Counted from the first letter of the whole stretch, positions 1,315-44,865 are shown. The stretch is 59,535 bases of DNA, filler included, from Sandaracinaceae bacterium (GCA_947483975.1; 4 parts of 4 records of this genome joined end to end with filler, not necessarily neighbours in it), one strand, 5' to 3'. Numbers and translations are program-made. Notes: a model not told the origin generated them from the sequence alone.

Positions 1315-1743
1315 TCAGTCGTCGCCGACCTTGCCGCGCCCAGCCTTCGTGCGCGCGTCGTGCCGCTTGCCCTCGAGGCGGCGCTCCTTCGAGCCGCGGC
1401 TCGGCTTGGTCGGGCGGCGCGGCTTCGGGACGAAGAGCGCGCGTCGGATCAGCTCCGCGAGCTTCTCGCGCGCGTCGGCGAGGTTCTTCACCTGATCGCG
1501 CGTGCGCTGGCTCGTCAGCAGGACGCGCCCCTCCGCGTCGAGCTTGCCCGCCGCGATGGTGCGCAGCCGCGCCTTGACCTCGACGCCGAGCGCGCGCGTC
1601 CCCGGCAGATCGAAGCGAAGCTCAACCTTGGACGCGACCTTGTTGACGTTCTGCCCGCCCGGTCCGCCCGAGCGCACAGCCGTCCACGACAGGTCGCCAC
1701 CAGGCAGCGTGACGCGCGGATCGATGTAAAGCGGCGAGGTCAT
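1315..1743 (-). CDS. arfB: Alternative ribosome rescue factor ArfB (peptidyl-tRNA hydrolase)
   Basis: RSGGPGGQNVNKVASKVELRFD (GGQ motif) and basic tail PKPRRPTKPSRGSKERRLEGK; ATG at 1743. Confidence 0.93.
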   Translation of the reverse strand: MTSPLYIDPRVTLPGGDLSWTAVRSGGPGGQNVNKVASKVELRFDLPGTRALGVEVKARLRTIAAGKLDAEGRVLLTSQRTRDQVKNLADAREKLAELIRRALFVPKPRRPTKPSRGSKERRLEGKRHDARTKAGRGKVGDD

Positions 1744-1881
1744 GGTGCAGCGAGGGTGTGCGCAGCGCGCGCGCGGGGCAAATGGGGGCGGGGTGGGCGG
1801 GGCCCCAAGCCGAGATGCCCCTTCAGCGCGGGCGCGGGTGAGCGCAGCGTGGGCGCTCACGCCGACCAAGGGTGGCGATGA

Positions 1882-3009
1882 TCACTTGCGCGGTCGGTCG
1901 GCGAAGGACTTGACCGCCGCACCGAGCTCGGAGAGCGCCTCACCCACGCTCGCAATGATGCTCGCCGTCACGTGGAGCACGACAAACGAGACCATCATAG
2001 AGCCGCCGATGGTGACGAGCTTGCCGAAGGTGAACGTTCCGAGCGGCAGCACCTCTCGGACTTCCTGCTCGGAGGTCACGATGAATTGGAACATGAGCCC
2101 GATGACCACCGCGCTCGCGCCGAGAATATGGGCCTCGATCAGCGACCGGACTCCATAGACGACCCACCGAATCTGAGAGGCCGCTCGCAACGTCGCGCCG
2201 CGCATCTCGAGGAGTCGGTAGAAGCACACTTGAAAGGCCACGATGCCGCCGCCGAACAACGCCAGCAGGAGCATCCATGGCTGCTTGGGAGCGTCGTTTC
2301 TCGCCCGAACGACGGTCATGTTCTGGTCGTATTGAGCAAGCCATTGAGCCGCGAGCGGGCGAATTGCGGCGGCAGCGGCGGTACACGCCGTGATGTCGTT
2401 GGTGATTTGCTGTCGAGTGGCCGTGAGGAGAGCTTCACAGCCAGGGCGCGTGTCAGTGTTGTTTTCACAGGCGCATCCCCAGCTACACGTCGACAGCGCT
2501 TGGTTGGCGAGTAGCGCCCGGTTCGCCGGGAGCAGCATGGCACGCTGTGCTGCGACGTTCTGGCACTCTGGAACGAAAGACTCGGCCGCCGTAGCCCCAG
2601 CCGCCGGTGCGGTGGCTAAGTACCCTCGTGCAGTCTCGGCAGGGTTTCCGTTCGCGATTTCGGGCAACGGATAAGAGAGGGTCATCACATTGAGCGTCTG
2701 GCGCTGAAAGCGAGCCTCGCGGAACGAATCAAACACGCCATGAAAGCCGATCGGAGCCACGATGGCCGCGAATAGCGATACGGCGGAAAACGCTGCGAGA
2801 GCCAGCGGAACGAGCCCCCCCGCGTCTACGAAACGAAGCAGAAACCCCGTGGGCAGAGCGGCAAAGCCGAGGACCTGGAACAATTCATTCGCCTTCGGTG
2901 GAGGCGTCGGCGGTTGGGGCGGCGCTTGCGCGGGTTGTTCCACCTGCTGCCCAGGTACATTGTACGGGCCCGGCGACTGCGAACCGTCCGACTCGACTAC
3001 ATTCGACAT
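1882..3009 (-). CDS. Hypothetical multi-pass membrane protein with a Cys-containing extracytoplasmic loop
   Basis: ORF of about 375 aa with several hydrophobic segments; codon usage visibly more AT-rich than the flanks. Confidence 0.65.
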   Translation of the reverse strand: MSNVVESDGSQSPGPYNVPGQQVEQPAQAPPQPPTPPPKANELFQVLGFAALPTGFLLRFVDAGGLVPLALAAFSAVSLFAAIVAPIGFHGVFDSFREARFQRQTLNVMTLSYPLPEIANGNPAETARGYLATAPAAGATAAESFVPECQNVAAQRAMLLPANRALLANQALSTCSWGCACENNTDTRPGCEALLTATRQQITNDITACTAAAAAIRPLAAQWLAQYDQNMTVVRARNDAPKQPWMLLLALFGGGIVAFQVCFYRLLEMRGATLRAASQIRWVVYGVRSLIEAHILGASAVVIGLMFQFIVTSEQEVREVLPLGTFTFGKLVTIGGSMMVSFVVLHVTASIIASVGEALSELGAAVKSFADRPRK

Positions 3010-3331
3010 CAACGCACCCCCGCGCTCCGTTTAGGGTCCGGAGCAAATATGTGCCGACCCTTACGCAAATCCGTGAATCAGGCGCTGGCCGCGCCCCAGA
3101 GTCCGCATCACGCAGACTTCCTGTGCCCTCACTCCTAGTCTACGTTGTCCGGGAACACAAGAACATTCCCGTCCGCGCGACGGCGCGCGGCTCGGCGCGA
3201 CCCACGCTGCGCGTCATTCGCGCGGCCTGCAGCGCTCCGCCCGGAGGTCCTCGGCCAGGAAGATGACGTCGGCATTGCCGATGCGCGCTTGGAGCCCGTA
3301 GGCGCCGCGACCCGATGAAGCCGCGCTCGTG

Positions 3332-4564
3332 TTAAGGGCGAGTCGAGATCACCACGTCGTCGACCGTCGCGTTGACGGCGGACGCACCATACAGGTCGAG
3401 ACCCCAAGTGCCGTTGAGGGAGCCCACCATGGCCGTGCCGGAGGCCATCGTGAAGCCGTCGATTTGCACGTAATAGGAGCCCGCCGCCCGATCGATCACG
3501 ACAGACCACAAGTTCGTGGCGGGGCGCGCCGGAAGCGTCACGACAATGTGGCTATCAGTGATCCAGACACCGCCCACCAAGCGGTCGTAGTTGATGCTGC
3601 CACCGCCGAAGTCGACGGACACGCCCTCCTCCGGGGTACCGAGGCGACGGATCGCGAGAAGCGTCAACGAGGTAGTGGCCGCCAAACGGAAGTCGAAGCG
3701 AATGGCCGTGTCGGTCGACACACCGATGCTCGGAGTGCAGGGCTTGTTCCAGTCACCGGGATAACGGTAGCTGCCGCTGCTGACCGAGGGGCAACCAAGT
3801 CCTGCGCAGCCCCGGCACATCGTCCAGCCGTTGGCGATCCCGTCATCGAAGTTCTCGCTGAGCTGAACGACCCATCCGCTCGCGGGCGTCGCACACGTAC
3901 TCGAGCAACCATCTCCATTGAGGGTATTGCCGTCGTCGCAAGTCTCGCCCATGCCGACGATGCCATCGCCGCAGCGCACCGCGCACGCTCCCGCGAGACA
4001 ACTCTGCCCGGCCTCGCAGACGATCGTCGTGTAGCCGAGGCCATCGTGGTTGCAGGTCTGAGTCACGATCGTGGTGGCGCACGAGGTGACACCATCGTAG
4101 TCAGTGGGATCCGAATCGTCGCAGTCGCCGCCGACGGCGACGTAGCCCGATGGCGAGGCGCAAGCGGGCATCGTCATCAAGGGCGAGCCGTAGCCATCTC
4201 CGTCGTTGTCTAGGTAGTACGTGCGCAACGTGCAGGCGTCGGTGCCAGCGTCGAGGGGAGTCCCGGCGTCGACTCCAGCGTCGATGGGGCCGGCGTCGAC
4301 TCCGGCGTCGATCGGACCAGCGTCGACGGGCATCGCCGCGTCGGGTCCACCGTCCTCCGGTCCACCATCGTCGGACATCGTGGCGTCCATGCCCGCGTCA
4401 CCCGAGCCTGCGTCGCTCGGCATATTCGCGTCCTTGCCGCCGTCGCTCGGGCCGGAGTCCTGCGGGCCGCCATCGACGTCGGTGGGGCGTATCGAGATGG
4501 CCTCGAGGTCGAGGCTGCAACCCGTCATCAACACCGCGAGCAGGAGTGTGGTCGTCGCACGCAT
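3332..4564 (-). CDS. Secreted lipoprotein with DAG-rich linker, MopE-like putative metal-binding motif, Myxococcus Cys-rich repeat and beta-rich C-terminal domain
   Basis: Lipobox MTGC; YYLDNDGDGYG...GDCDDSDP; CGDGIVGMGETCDDGN; its ATG overlaps the stop of the upstream TPR gene (TGATG). Confidence 0.8.
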   Translation of the reverse strand: MRATTTLLLAVLMTGCSLDLEAISIRPTDVDGGPQDSGPSDGGKDANMPSDAGSGDAGMDATMSDDGGPEDGGPDAAMPVDAGPIDAGVDAGPIDAGVDAGTPLDAGTDACTLRTYYLDNDGDGYGSPLMTMPACASPSGYVAVGGDCDDSDPTDYDGVTSCATTIVTQTCNHDGLGYTTIVCEAGQSCLAGACAVRCGDGIVGMGETCDDGNTLNGDGCSSTCATPASGWVVQLSENFDDGIANGWTMCRGCAGLGCPSVSSGSYRYPGDWNKPCTPSIGVSTDTAIRFDFRLAATTSLTLLAIRRLGTPEEGVSVDFGGGSINYDRLVGGVWITDSHIVVTLPARPATNLWSVVIDRAAGSYYVQIDGFTMASGTAMVGSLNGTWGLDLYGASAVNATVDDVVISTRP

Positions 4565-5538
4565 CAGAAGCTCCCTCGTACGACGAGTCCGCCGAGGCCT
4601 ACGCCCGCAGCGACGCGCACATCCTCGGGGCCGTCGTCCCCGCCCTCCACGAAGAACAGCACCACGCCCGTCAGCGCCGCGGCGCCGCCCACCGCGAACA
4701 GGATGTTCGTCAGGGTCACGCGCATACCGAGGCTGGCGTCGTCCACCTCGGCCTGCGTACAGCCGCCCTTCGCGGCGCAGTCCGTGACGAGCTTGTCGTA
4801 GTCGGACTGCACGAGGACGCCGACGACCGCGCCTCCCACGCCCGCCGCGACGCCCGCGCCGAGCGCGAGCCAAGTGAAGAGGCGGCCGCCTCCGTGCTGC
4901 TCGTCCGCTGCTGGCGCGTCGGTATCGGTCGGGCCGCGGGTCGCGTCGAGGCGCGCAGGCTCGACGTTCGCGCTGGTCGCGACGGTCGGCGTCACCGCTG
5001 CGACCGTCGGCGTCGTCGCGGCGACGGGTCGAGTCACCGTGGTGGTCGCCGGCGTCACCGCTGCGGCGGTCGCGGTCACTGGCGTGGTCGTCGGCGTCGT
5101 CGCGACCGGAGGCGTGCTCACGGTCGCCCGCTGTGCGCGAGCGTCGAGGAGCGCGCGCAGGCGACTATCGACCTCCGCGCGGTTGAGGGCGTCGGGGGCG
5201 GACTCGCGCAGGTAGCGCTGGAAGGCCTCGACGGCCTCGTCGTCGCGGCGCAGTCGGTCCGCGGAGATACCCACGTTGTAGAGGAGCGCGGCGCGTCCGG
5301 AGAGCGCGTGCGCGCGCTTGAAGTAGTCGAGGGCGTCCGCGTAGTGACCGCCCCGGAAGGCTTGCTCGCCGGCTTGAAACAGCCCCCGCGCCTCGCCGTC
5401 GCGCGACGCGTCGGGGGCCGCCTGGGCGACGCTCCCGGTCTGCTGAGCGCACGCGCGTGAGGGGGGCGCGGCGGAGAGAAGGGCAAGCACCCAAAGGACG
5501 CCAAGCGCGCATGGGACCAAGGTTCGACGAAAACGCAT
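4564..5538 (-). CDS. Secreted TPR protein with Thr-rich linker and hydrophobic C-terminus
   Basis: Signal peptide; EARGLFQAGEQAF..YADALDYFKRAH..LLYNVG TPR pattern; ends GLVVRGSF. Confidence 0.8.
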   Translation of the reverse strand: MRFRRTLVPCALGVLWVLALLSAAPPSRACAQQTGSVAQAAPDASRDGEARGLFQAGEQAFRGGHYADALDYFKRAHALSGRAALLYNVGISADRLRRDDEAVEAFQRYLRESAPDALNRAEVDSRLRALLDARAQRATVSTPPVATTPTTTPVTATAAAVTPATTTVTRPVAATTPTVAAVTPTVATSANVEPARLDATRGPTDTDAPAADEQHGGGRLFTWLALGAGVAAGVGGAVVGVLVQSDYDKLVTDCAAKGGCTQAEVDDASLGMRVTLTNILFAVGGAAALTGVVLFFVEGGDDGPEDVRVAAGVGLGGLVVRGSF

Positions 5539-5702
5539 CGTGGGGCGGACGGTATCGTAGCTGTCCGAAATACTCCACCGTCGCAGGCAGCGTTTCGCAT
5601 TGGTGACGCGGCCTACAACCCGCGTCGCGCGCCTCGAGAGAGCGCGGCGAGTGAGTGAACCGACCCACACGCCGCACAGGCACATCCCAACTCGCTCCGT
5701 TC

Positions 5703-6044
5703 AACTCCGAGCACTTCGCGCCGAGTCCGTCGCTGTGCACGCCCGACTCGGAGCAAGTCGCCGCGCGTCGCGCCCCCGCGCGGACCACTCGGACCCTTCG
5801 CCGCCGATGGCGCACGCGCCCGCGCACCACTCCGAGTGACCGTCGGCGCCCCCCGAGGTGCTCCGGGACCGCTCGGAGTGAGGCTGGCGCCGTCGCGCGC
5901 CCGGGCAGTGCGGTCGGAGTGACTGCGCCTCGGCGCGAGCCTTTTGGGCATCGCTCGGAGCGGGTCGGGGCGGTTCTTTGGGCGGGCGAGATCGCTCGCG
6001 CTCAGCGACCGAAAGATCGCACGCAACTGAGGGAACTCCGAGCC
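5703..6044. repeat. Phased array of short palindromes, core CTC[CG]GAG (best copy CACTCCGAGTG), period 41-42 bp, non-repeated spacers
   Basis: Cores start at 5705, 5747, 5788, 5830, 5872, 5913, 5954, 5995 (degenerate) and 6036. Confidence 0.8.
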
Positions 6045-6052
6045 GACAAGGG
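6022..6052 (+). promoter_or_regulatory. Bipartite motif CGCAACTGA-N12-CCGACAAGGG, putative ECF-sigma-type promoter
   Basis: Same boxes and same spacing at 16402-16432, upstream of the paralogous gene. Confidence 0.65.
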
Positions 6053-6095
6053 AGGCGTAACGCGGGCTGGACAGGTTCTCTCACCAACAGGAGCA

Positions 6096-6968
6096 ATGAT
6101 CATGACGAACTCAGCAAGTAACGATGTGATGGCGAACGAGGCGCTGACGTACCGGAGCGCGCTCGATGGGATGCGGCAGAGCCTCAAGGAGATGCCGGAG
6201 CAGGAGGTCGAGCGGCGGGTCACCGTGGACGCGAGCGCCGCGGCGCTGATCGTCGGCGCGACGGTGACCAAGGTTGAGCCGTTCCGCGCGGAATTGATCG
6301 GCGCTTTCGGCGAGGCGGCTCGGCAGGTGCTCGACGCGCTGCCGGTGGTGGCGCTCGCGACGCGGCAGGCGGACATCGAGCTCGCGATGAGCGGGACGAT
6401 GAACGACCTCTCGGGGCTGTTCGAGGAGGTCCGCGCGACGCATCAGCTCCTGATCACCGACGCGGCCTCGCTCGCCAATCGGAAGCTCCTCGATCCGAAG
6501 CGCCTCGAGCCCGCGCGCAACGTGCAGGGCTACCTCGCGACGGTCGACAGCGTGGAGCGCTTGGTGTCGCTGCTCCGCGAGAGCTGGGCCACGCTCGGGG
6601 GACACACGCCGCTCGTCGAGGCCGACCTCGACCGCGCGGTCGTGCTCGCGAAGCGGCTCTCGGCGGCGGTCGCGGCGCGCGACAACGGCGTCGCGCGGGC
6701 CCCGGCGCTCGAGACGCGCCTGCGCGTGATCAGCCGGCTGCTCCGCCTCTACGACGAGCTGCGCCGGATGATGACGTACCTGCGCTGGCGGCAAGGCGAC
6801 GTGGACCTGTTCGCGCCGTCGCTCTGGGCGAGCCGCGGCCGCCGCTCGCGCGCGCAACGGGGCGGCGACCCGAACCTCGCTGACCCGACCGACGACCCGA
6901 CGCTCGACGCAGACGGCCCCGCGTCGCCCGCGGTCCCGACCAACGGCGGCGGGCCCTTCATCTCTTGA
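6096..6968 (+). CDS. Uncharacterised alpha-helical protein (paralog of 16460-17269)
   Basis: SD AGGAG before ATG 6096; C-terminal motif LYDELRRMMTYLRWRQGDVDLFAPSLW is shared with the paralog. Confidence 0.8.
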   Translation: MIMTNSASNDVMANEALTYRSALDGMRQSLKEMPEQEVERRVTVDASAAALIVGATVTKVEPFRAELIGAFGEAARQVLDALPVVALATRQADIELAMSGTMNDLSGLFEEVRATHQLLITDAASLANRKLLDPKRLEPARNVQGYLATVDSVERLVSLLRESWATLGGHTPLVEADLDRAVVLAKRLSAAVAARDNGVARAPALETRLRVISRLLRLYDELRRMMTYLRWRQGDVDLFAPSLWASRGRRSRAQRGGDPNLADPTDDPTLDADGPASPAVPTNGGGPFIS

Positions 6969-6996
6969 GGGCGGACTCACGCTGCCAGCCGCCGAC

Positions 6997-7081
6997 GCGC
7001 GCCGCTCAAACACCGCGCGTCGGCGGCAGCAGCGCGTCGGGCACTCCGAGCCTGCGCAGCGCGTCGCTGAGGTCGGCGGGG
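6997..7081. repeat. 85-bp direct repeat of 9109-9193 (3' end of the pseudouridine synthase gene)
   Basis: Alignment by eye: offset 2112 bp, 2 mismatches. Confidence 0.95.
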
Positions 7082-7095
7082 CGCCGTTGCGTGCA

Positions 7096-9006
<1,911 letters not shown>

Positions 9007-9108
9007 GCGCCGAGACTACTCGATGTGTGCGGCGAGAATGTTCGTGATCGAGGTCGCGCTCGAGGATTCGGAGAGGATGAGGGCCGTCGGCGGGAGGAGG
9101 CTCGCGCT

Positions 9109-9193
9109 GCGCGCCGCTCAAACACCGCGCGTCGGCGGCAGCAGCGCGTCGGGTACTCCGAGCCTGCGCAGCGCTTCGCTGAGGTCGGCGGGG
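9109..9193. repeat. Second copy of the 85-bp direct repeat (current 3' end of the pseudouridine synthase gene)
   Basis: Matches 6997-7081. Confidence 0.95.
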
Positions 9194-9825
9194 AGCGGCG
9201 CGGCGACGCTCATCGGCGCGCCCGTGCGCGGGTGTGGGAACACCAGCTGTGCCGCGTGGAGCGCGAGGCGAGTCAGGGCGTACTCGCTGCGGAATCTGCG
9301 GTTCGTCGCGCCGTCGCCGTAGTTGGTGTCGCCGACGATCGGGTGATGGAGGTGCTTGAGGTGCCGCCTGATCTGATGGAAGCGCCCCGTCTTCGGCTTC
9401 GCCTCGACGAGCGAGCAGTGCGGGCCCTCCCACAGGCGGCGCAGGTCCGTGACGGCGGCGACGCGCTCGCCGCCCTCGTCCTTCGGCACGGGGTAGTCGA
9501 CGACGAGGTGCTCGGGCGCGACGCCGCGGACGAGCGCGAGGTAGGTCTTCTCGACCTCGCCTTGCTCGAAGCTGCGCGAGAGCGCCGTCGCCATCTCGGG
9601 CGAGAGCGCGAGCAGCAGCGCGCCGCTCGTCGCGCGGTCGAGGCGATGCACGGTGTAGACGTGCCGGCCGAGGGTGTCGCGCGCGCGCACCATCGCGACG
9701 TCGCGCTCGCGCGTCATGCCGCCGCGGTGCACGAGCAGGCCCGACGGCTTGCACACGACGGCGAGGTCGTCGTCGGCGTAGAGCACCTCGATCGTCGGCC
9801 CGGCGCTGGGCTCAGTCGTCGTCAT
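9118..9825 (-). CDS. RluA/TruC-family pseudouridine synthase
   Basis: KPSGLLVH, VHRLDRATSG, KTGRFHQIRRH, HPIVGDTNYG, LALHA. Confidence 0.93.
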   Translation of the reverse strand: MTTTEPSAGPTIEVLYADDDLAVVCKPSGLLVHRGGMTRERDVAMVRARDTLGRHVYTVHRLDRATSGALLLALSPEMATALSRSFEQGEVEKTYLALVRGVAPEHLVVDYPVPKDEGGERVAAVTDLRRLWEGPHCSLVEAKPKTGRFHQIRRHLKHLHHPIVGDTNYGDGATNRRFRSEYALTRLALHAAQLVFPHPRTGAPMSVAAPLPADLSEALRRLGVPDALLPPTRGV

Positions 9826-15020: not shown

Positions 15021-15120
15021 NNNNNNNNNNNNNNNNNNNNNNNNNNNNNNNNNNNNNNNNNNNNTTAATTAATTAANNNNNNNNNNNNNNNNNNNNNNNN
15101 NNNNNNNNNNNNNNNNNNNN
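15021..15120. other. Artificial contig linker
   Basis: N44-TTAATTAATTAA-N44 (stop codons in all six frames). Confidence 0.97.
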
Positions 15121-15266
15121 CCGTCCGCTACCCGGAGGCTGCGTAATGCTGTGTCCCGAGAGACCATCGGTAAGCCGTGTGCGGGAAATCCGCACGCACG
15201 GTTTGAAAGGGGGTCCTGCCCTTTCACTGATGAACTTCATCAAATGAAAGAGCAGGATCTACCAAT
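15121..15266 (+). mobile_element. 3' end of a group II intron (end of the intron-encoded ORF, domain V, domain VI)
   Basis: ORF tail VRYPEAA* ends at 15146; domain V AAGCCGTGTGCGGGAAATCCGCACGCACGGTTT (15172-15204) with AGC triad; domain VI stem TCCTGC..TTTCA/TGAAA..GCAGGA with bulged A near 15261; terminal AY (AAT). Confidence 0.9.
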
Positions 15267-29990: not shown

Positions 29991-30090
29991 NNNNNNNNNN
30001 NNNNNNNNNNNNNNNNNNNNNNNNNNNNNNNNNNTTAATTAATTAANNNNNNNNNNNNNNNNNNNNNNNNNNNNNNNNNNNNNNNNNNNN
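29991..30090. other. Artificial contig linker
   Basis: N44-TTAATTAATTAA-N44. Confidence 0.97.
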
Positions 30091-39120: not shown

Positions 39121-41805
<2,685 letters not shown>

Positions 41806-44765: not shown

Positions 44766-44865
44766 NNNNNNNNNNNNNNNNNNNNNNNNNNNNNNNNNNN
44801 NNNNNNNNNTTAATTAATTAANNNNNNNNNNNNNNNNNNNNNNNNNNNNNNNNNNNNNNNNNNNN
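44766..44865. other. Artificial contig linker
   Basis: N44-TTAATTAATTAA-N44. Confidence 0.97.

Follow-up and report, generated by a model that had tools for sequence, protein, structure and literature searches.

Phased palindrome arrays upstream of genes for an unnamed helical protein family in Myxococcota: a candidate chromosomal DNA-binding module

Results

We analysed a stretch of DNA of 59,535 nucleotides (hereafter, the window) from the assembly of Sandaracinaceae bacterium GCA_947483975.1, in which an intergenic array of short palindromic sites lies directly upstream of a gene for an uncharacterised helical protein. N runs (15021-15120, 29991-30090 and 44766-44865) separate the four contigs of which the window is made, and the assembly from which it comes (G000) has 5,287,670 bases in 524 contigs, with 71% G+C and a completeness of 81%. 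The array (5700..6045, with no strand assigned), recognised from its sequence, its phasing and comparison with copies, has nine phased sites with a CTCSGAG core, here called P1 sites. It occupies the intergenic region between a divergent gene for a TPR/membrane protein (4564..5490, minus strand) and a plus-strand gene (6102..6968) for a 288-aa protein, predicted to be all-helical, of an unnamed Myxococcota family, a description based on HMMER clusters and an AlphaFold2 model. We rate such arrays and genes as a real kind of module, of which the window holds a reduced example. The kind is apparently undescribed: in the literature searched, with subscription journals outside its scope, there is no description of such arrays or of this protein family.

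The P1 cores begin at 5705, 5747, 5788, 5830, 5872, 5913, 5954, 5995 and 6036, with successive spacings of 42, 41, 42, 42, 41, 41, 41 and 41 bp, which reproduces in every position and interval the original prediction of nine CTCSGAG-type copies set 41-42 bp apart. The sites span 5705-6042 and, as that prediction also had it, three are imperfect: those at 5788 (CTCGGAC) and 5913 (GTCGGAG) match the core in 6/7 bases and the weakest, at 5995 (CTCGCGC), in 4/7, the other six being exact. The full extended form, CACTCCGAGTG, is found solely at 5828-5838, and the remaining copies share parts of it. Across the window as a whole the heptamer is not enriched (26 observed vs 27.7 expected); six of the 26 copies fall inside 338 bp, for which the Poisson probability of six or more is 1.7e-9, or 2.7e-5 over all windows. 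The whole assembly has 1647 CTCSGAG motifs and just two clusters with at least four in 400 bp, the window array and C163:5976-6225, both of them phased at 41/42 bp. The clustering also stands up to comparison with shuffled sequence, in that 20,000 mononucleotide shuffles of 5600-6099 reached a maximum of four motifs (mean 0.11), and the phase coherence of the sites is R = 0.997 at period 41.4. Tandem Repeats Finder (TRF), when run on the window, did not report the array, which fits spacers that are unlike one another within it.

The array is not translated. Its G+C content is flat by codon position (0.73/0.71/0.69 in 5655-6095, vs 0.73/0.50/0.94 in the gene at 6102..6968), and its sites use all three frames (2,2,1,1,1,0,2,1,0 along the array). 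Together, these two features remove an objection foreseen at the outset, that the region might be a translated open reading frame of 14-aa repeats. Two other details of the original prediction fared less well. It had placed the last site inside the spacer of a promoter-like motif, a claim left unconfirmed by a sigma-70 consensus scan of 5500-7150, which returned no promoter-like site. It had also started the downstream gene at 6096, and a start at 6102 is more likely, because the ATG there comes 8 nt after an AGGAG ribosome-binding site (6089..6093, plus strand; read from the sequence) and the N-termini of homologues align to its Met.

The 288-aa protein has no family in Pfam, NCBIfam, PHROGs or PADLOC, in agreement with the earlier statement that no named family was recognised. 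Exhaustive HMMER searches recovered 1903 representative clusters (50% identity) at E<=1e-3 and 1086 at E<=1e-10. Its named relatives are all "hypothetical protein", relatives with a title come from Polyangiales, Sandaracinus and Sandaracinaceae metagenome-assembled genomes, and its neighbours in the ESM Atlas are only unnamed Myxococcota clusters without a Pfam family. Matches occur in 18 of 61 relatives' genomes and in at least 17 of 301 sampled Myxococcota genomes, other orders included; the family is multi-copy, with ten strong and two weak hidden Markov model matches in G000, and tblastn of the protein found no match in plasmid or phage collections. The AlphaFold2 model, built with 19 sequences (mean predicted local distance difference test score 81.5), has nine long helices up to residue 227, then one short helix, and ends with a basic PSLWASRGRRSR stretch that leads into a disordered tail. 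The predicted layout comprises a helical core (residues ~4-237), the basic PSLWASRGRRSR segment and a disordered linker, with an NGGxPF motif conserved at the C-terminus. Arginines account for six of the 16 nearly invariant positions and cluster at residues 193-228, with a basic RGRR segment after them. Foldseek found no match to this all-helical model in PDB at E<=1e-3, and a wide VIA search returned generic helical bundles (best Z 7.9).

The combination of array and gene is not confined to the window. We scanned lags of 10-99 by autocorrelation in the 700 bp upstream of 30 family loci (29 distinct, window included), took a second sample of eight loci, other orders included, and used 400 random G000 genes as a control. 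The strongest lag was 41-43 or 83-85 at 21 of the 30 loci and at five of the eight, a sixth having a 123-bp TRF period, and combining both samples gives a strongest periodicity of 41-43 bp or its double in 26/38 family loci vs 29/400 controls. At z >= 4.8 the corresponding counts are 14/30 and 3/400, and TRF arrays with a period of 41-43, or two or three times that, lie upstream of 12 of the 30. On these counts homologues do carry phased arrays, and an upstream array of ~42 bp phasing appears to be a general property of the helical-protein family.

Clean relatives have four to ten true tandem units, each with two loop-less palindromes ~21 bp apart. In the congeneric genome G001, the homologue (65% identity) is preceded by six near-perfect units, each with GAACTCCGAGTTC and then GATTTTGAAATC ~21 bp on; in G045, a homologue (42% identity) has seven units in which GAATCTCGGAGATTC alternates with GGATTCGAAATCC or GATTCTAGAATC, and the true period of this array is 83, which explains the alternation of 41 and 42. 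When the two best palindromes of each unit were taken from 14 arrays, 19/23 had just 0-2 nt between their arms, which measure 6-11 bp, and the centres of the two lie 20-21 bp apart in 5/10 units. Paralogs are alike in geometry and differ in their palindromes, and the period of 41-43 is held across unit sequences without mutual similarity. In the window array, the second, AT-rich palindrome of the relatives' units is mostly decayed, with T-rich remnants near 5937, 5978 and 6013; since it has retained its P1 cores but little of the second palindrome, we regard this array as a decayed member. P1 itself seems to vary on a shared (C/G)TC-S-GA(G/C) theme that does not cleanly track orthology, because CTCSGAG occurs in separate subclades while nearer relatives carry other cores.

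The form of the units bears on the possibility that the array acts as a transcribed structured RNA, either as tandem hairpins or as a repeat-spacer RNA, in trans or in cis on the mRNA leader. CTCCGAG copies are complementary to CTCGGAG copies and pair with them in predicted folds, and clean units could form hairpins with 7-bp stems if their central pairs opened. Nonetheless, the palindrome centres of 0-2 nt tell against an RNA, as do the central base, whose orientation relative to the gene differs among loci, the fold z-scores of the array (-1.40 on the plus strand and +0.62 on the minus strand) and the behaviour of Alifold, which is equally permissive on both strands (8 and 9 compensatory counts). 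Rfam covariance models, applied at the gathering score to the window and C163, gave no match at the array, and clean relatives repeat the whole unit without unique spacers, which leaves little of the repeat-spacer RNA that the original prediction had offered as an option. We consider a function as RNA very improbable. The array was also rejected as a CRISPR, given a conserved core of 7-11 bp and relatives that repeat the entire 41-43 bp unit without unique spacers. The absence of cas genes noted at the outset holds for the four flanking genes scanned, in which there is no Cas family, and none is recurrent as a neighbour across 34 loci.

A second array in G000, at C163:5974-6281, aligns to that of the window over ~310 nt with 80% identity, spacers included, and by this alignment is a paralogous copy. 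The cores appear to be under stronger constraint than the spacers: identity between the two copies is 53/56 in cores and 190/250 in spacers and other columns (Fisher p = 0.0009). In a strain contig from an independent lake metagenome, 10/11 array differences are in spacers, and the sole core difference (5794 C>G) brings the third site, imperfect in the window, back to the consensus as CTCGGAG; one 1-nt deletion shifts a 42 spacing to 41, and the copy number of the array is unchanged in the two strain contigs spanning it. The C163 array comes after the 3' end of a plus-strand gene and is followed by non-coding DNA and then by a minus-strand open reading frame, and a profile search found no helical-family gene on this contig. 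A third array of the CTCSGAG class in G000, of three units, is at C250:6715-6804.

Homologous arrays in other genomes were found via the protein and the motif pattern, a BLAST of the array against 40 relatives having returned only GC-rich noise beyond the two G000 copies. CTCSGAG-class arrays occur at three loci in G000, at six in G001 (all AACTCSGAGTT arrays, in a genome with a single helical-family gene) and at four in G045, with one gene-linked array per genome, and 5/9 of the unlinked ones sit between convergent genes. Because arrays of the same class stand at unlinked loci without a family gene, often between convergent genes, the window array is evidently not simply the operator of the adjacent gene. 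The pattern search also met, at G045:C1:2754661-2754877, five near-identical 42-bp units that start with CTCGGAG and are otherwise unlike the GAATCTCSGAGATTC class.

Arrays of this period are common in the genome. With gene calls from a crude GC3-based caller, 43/215 intergenic tandem-repeat loci of G000 (TRF score >= 100) have a period of 41-43, as do 4/201 coding repeats; by period, intergenic arrays number 2 at 40, 10 at 41, 26 at 42, 7 at 43 and 1 at 44. Arrays with a period of 41-43 bp are thus the dominant intergenic tandem repeat of G000. They form 43 sequence classes, seven of which have a family gene beside one array and none beside two, and 17/58 intergenic arrays lie between two gene 3' ends. 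Examples are C218:1961-2349, C147:3044-3348, C41:18132-18471 and C54:9543-9806, and most arrays have no adjoining family gene.

Such abundance could also come about if tandem duplication of ~42-bp units were a mutational habit of these genomes that yields largely neutral minisatellites, the link to the helical family then reflecting a shared location in variable regions. The many unrelated unit sequences among the 43 intergenic loci of this period are as this explanation would have them, and so are the diverged spacers of the window array. It is at odds, however, with the conservation of cores over spacers, with a period that stays constant while unit sequences differ, with the enrichment at family loci (26/38 vs 29/400) and with palindromes that are about three-fold enriched under a strict test; we hold it to be improbable.

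To describe the surroundings of the family, we clustered the crude-called genes of 37 loci, of which 34 are distinct and most have only ~1.5 kb of flanking DNA. No more than two families are recurrent across the 34 distinct loci: the helical protein and a protein of ~455-510 aa, which is encoded directly downstream on the same strand in 11 of them. By its domain matches the latter is a HerA/FtsK-superfamily ATPase: it hits Pfam HerA_C at 37-45 bits (cut-off 22) and DUF87, more weakly TrwB, FtsK and AAA_10, and HerA in both PDB (E 3e-7) and PADLOC (E 4e-14). Within G000, a gene for this HerA-like ATPase follows the family gene at C131, C206 and C123. Two further loci of the genome have variant arrangements. 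At C47:9080-11985 (L095), two 43-bp arrays precede a 257-aa non-family protein and then a HerA-like ATPase; when aligned to the family by hhalign, the 257-aa protein matches only at the C-terminal PF tail, weakly (31% probability), and it may be a second type of adaptor, with the same layout and a similar PF tail. At C154 (L096:2266-5049), a 928-aa protein has a HerA-like P-loop region from ~residue 184, and possibly represents the partner ATPase in a longer or fused version.

Viewed from the arrays, 38 genes of G000 present their 5' end to one within 600 bp, and only the helical family recurs among them (seven genes). This bears on another explanation, under which the arrays are operator or enhancer platforms for other class-specific factors and the helical protein is merely a regulated gene. 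A protein without a known DNA-binding fold, many array classes without a family gene, and a motif that does not strictly follow the protein tree would all suit such a scheme. But it needs a separate unknown factor for each class, and no second array-side family came to light, the 34 loci yielding the helical family and the ATPase only, and G000 the helical family only. We rate it as unlikely.

At the window locus, no HerA-family ATPase is encoded among the genes present. The neighbours of the array are genes for the TPR protein, a Ser/Thr kinase and a pseudouridine synthase, and the kinase gene, which comes next after the helical gene, is convergent with it. Because the ATPase is missing and the spacers are decayed, the locus appears to be a degraded or reduced solo copy of the module. 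Relative to the congeneric G001, ~1740-9110 of the window is an insertion of ~7.4 kb that carries the array together with genes for the helical protein, the kinase, the TPR protein, a membrane protein and a secreted repeat protein; in G001, the gene at 1315..1677 and the pseudouridine synthase gene have orthologues that lie close together, without this segment at that place. The G001 module is at a different site with unrelated neighbours, and the array loci are not syntenic between the two genomes.

Kinases are common in this order, and the Ser/Thr kinase was rejected as a module partner, its presence beside a family gene in three loci (window, L053, L098) being judged compatible with chance. 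The kinase gene (7096..9006, minus strand) is flanked by an 88-nt direct repeat, 97% identical, at 6997-7084 and 9109-9196; the first copy starts 29 nt past the stop of the helical gene and holds another CACTCCGAG, and the second shares bases with the 3' end of the gene for the pseudouridine synthase (9118..9825, minus strand). This arrangement suggests that the kinase segment was inserted or duplicated at the repeat junction.

A 42-bp repeat of three copies at 4979-5104, inside the TPR/membrane gene (minus strand), codes for a Thr/Pro/Val/Ala-rich linker and has no relation to the intergenic arrays. On a different contig of the window there are a perfect 18-bp tandem repeat of 5.3 copies (39538-39633) and a 15-bp repeat of 9.2 copies (40075-40212). 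Rfam has a single match across the window and C163: just past the first N run, at 15170-15227, the window matches a group II intron domain (RF00029; 42.5 bits vs a gathering score of 40).

Discussion

We give an even chance to the reading that the array is a platform of double-stranded DNA sites whose cognate binder is the adjacent helical protein; elsewhere this protein would work with a HerA-like motor. On this reading the platform belongs to a Myxococcota-wide class of modules, in which a phased palindrome array of 41-43 bp lies directly upstream of a helical-family gene. A period of 41-43 bp (i.e., four turns at ~10.4-10.6 bp), loop-less dyads two turns apart and the constraint on cores together point to a double-stranded target that is recognised by symmetric protein units, aligned along one helical face, and the resemblance of loop-less palindromes to double-stranded sites for dimers would fit such recognition. 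The helical protein is proposed as the binder of P1 because it is the sole consistently linked gene.

We infer for this protein the roles of binder, cooperative assembler, regulator of its own gene and recruiter of the ATPase. Probably as a dimer or higher oligomer, it would recognise P1, the palindrome that varies between arrays and is CTCSGAG here, and spread along the array by cooperative assembly. It would thereby control expression of its own gene, and would also occupy arrays of the same class elsewhere (C163 and C250 in G000). Fuller modules have in addition the second, AT-rich palindrome ~21 bp from P1 and a HerA/FtsK-like ATPase as the next gene, which the conserved C-terminal NGGxPF peptide may recruit. 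The cooperative platform of the original prediction survives in this form on the strength of the link between array and family, the loop-less palindromes and the core constraint; given the unlinked and often convergently flanked arrays, it is not simply an operator of the protein's own gene.

Several observations weigh against a platform cognate to the helical protein. The protein has no recognisable DNA-binding domain or fold match (Pfam, Foldseek against PDB, VIA). A rule of one protein per class is countered by the 43 array classes of G000, of which seven have a family gene, with the caveat that this genome is 81% complete and that its arrays are often at contig ends. A perfect palindrome (arm >= 6, gap <= 2) is present in just 13/53 G000 arrays, vs 257/3000 random 42-mers (8.6%). 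Five of the nine unlinked arrays of the window's class are flanked by convergent genes, a position that offers an operator no gene to control. In the protein tree, the CTCSGAG-linked protein of G045 is in a different well-supported subclade from the pair formed by the window and G001, and nearer relatives (L084 and G000 C51) carry other motifs, of the GTCCGAC type or with other cores. Finally, the window locus, without the ATPase and the second palindrome, may be decaying.

If the arrays were selfish or mobile repeats with a captive protein, we would be looking at non-autonomous elements that spread to permissive intergenic sites and that the single adjacent family gene of each class copies or maintains, possibly with a HerA-like motor. 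The presence of same-class arrays at unlinked loci (three in G000, six in G001 and four in G045) when each genome has one linked gene, the frequent position between convergent genes (17/58 G000 arrays and 5/9 unlinked CTCSGAG arrays), and the lack of synteny of array loci and module between G000 and G001 all accord with this. So does the likeness to REPINs and RAYTs: a distinct REPIN cluster adjoins each single-copy RAYT gene (PMC3116915), and dispersed, intergenic palindromic repeats in classes, with one cognate gene beside its own repeats and many copies between convergent genes, are found here as well. However, membership of the REP/REPIN-RAYT group fails on its requirement for an IS200-like Y1 (HUH) transposase. 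The helical protein is all-helical in the AlphaFold2 model, with no Y1/HUH transposase family match in Pfam and no HUH, transposase or recombinase signature or fold in Pfam, Foldseek or VIA; the arrays run head-to-tail with a fixed 41-43 bp period, not as hairpin doublets, and each class has 2-6 loci, not hundreds. Moreover, the strain contigs have no target-site duplication or excision junction at the window locus, and mobility alone would leave the fixed four-turn period unexplained. We therefore see a selfish origin as unlikely.

Among the closest known systems is the F-plasmid sopC centromere (type Ia partition), which has 12 repeats of 43 bp; SopB binds a 16-bp inverted repeat in each of them (PMC3177203). 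The module resembles sopC with SopB and SopA in its tandem direct repeats of ~4 turns with an inverted-repeat protein site, and in bringing together a cis array, a binder and a nucleoside triphosphatase (NTPase); the clustered, dyad-symmetric sites of ParABS and sopC have their counterpart in the nine phased sites of the window and the 4-10 units of relatives. The module has no ParB/SopB or ParA/SopA homologue (Pfam, NCBIfam, fold searches), the partner NTPase of relatives is HerA/FtsK-like, not ParA-like, and is absent in the window, and the relatives' units each carry two different palindromes. In addition, the module resides on the chromosome, where a genome may have up to ~10 paralogous copies of it and a class several arrays, and tblastn found no match for the helical protein in the plasmid collection. 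Membership of the ParABS/sopC type of partition system fails on the ParB/SopB-family binder and on the adjacent ParA-type ATPase.

Theta-replicating plasmids carry iterons, phased repeats upstream of the gene for the presumed binder, Rep, which is subject to autoregulation. Phased repeats directly upstream of the gene for a presumed binder are common to both systems, but the sites described here are palindromic rather than direct iterons of 17-22 bp, the module sits on the chromosome in multiple copies, and some arrays are unlinked. An iteron-Rep origin was rejected, there being no Rep family match in Pfam or NCBIfam and no plasmid match by tblastn. Motors of the FtsK-HerA superfamily act with a repeated short cis motif in the TraB-clt system of Streptomyces and in adenovirus packaging, with its A-repeats and IVa2, and relatives of the window locus likewise pair an array and a helical protein with a HerA-like ATPase. 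In contrast to those systems, no conjugation or virion genes recur near the 34 loci, recognition of the site would lie in a separate helical protein, and the window has no ATPase. The HerA-NurA, SIR2-HerA and DUF4297-HerA defence systems were rejected too: the window has no HerA, and the helical proteins have no PADLOC or Pfam match to NurA, SIR2 or DUF4297.

Taken furthest, the platform reading leads to a speculative model that we regard as rather unlikely. Myxococcota would have a novel class of chromosomal module made up of cis-site, adaptor and motor, whose 42-bp phased double-palindrome arrays would be loading or assembly platforms, with a role like that of a centromere, clt or pac site; the helical adaptor, sequence-specific, would polymerise on them, and its C-terminal NGGxPF would recruit a hexameric DNA translocase of the HerA/FtsK type. 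Many mutually orthogonal specificities per genome would mark sets of chromosomal loci that are organised, moved or policed together, and the window would hold an adaptor-only member that still addresses three arrays.

Even the selfish-repeat explanation, if true, would be notable as an association of the REPIN/RAYT kind built from unrelated parts. If the arrays are instead platforms for the helical protein and its motor, they would represent a fourth kind of module of array, binder and NTPase, beside those of ParA, ParM and TubZ and built on a HerA/FtsK-type motor, and they would offer many natural, orthogonal protein-site pairs of fixed geometry, useful for studies of cooperative DNA recognition and for synthetic biology. 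For the organisms themselves, the 41-43 bp arrays that make up 43/215 intergenic tandem-repeat loci in G000 would gain an explanation, and a family of at least 1903 clusters (50% identity) without annotation would gain a testable role.

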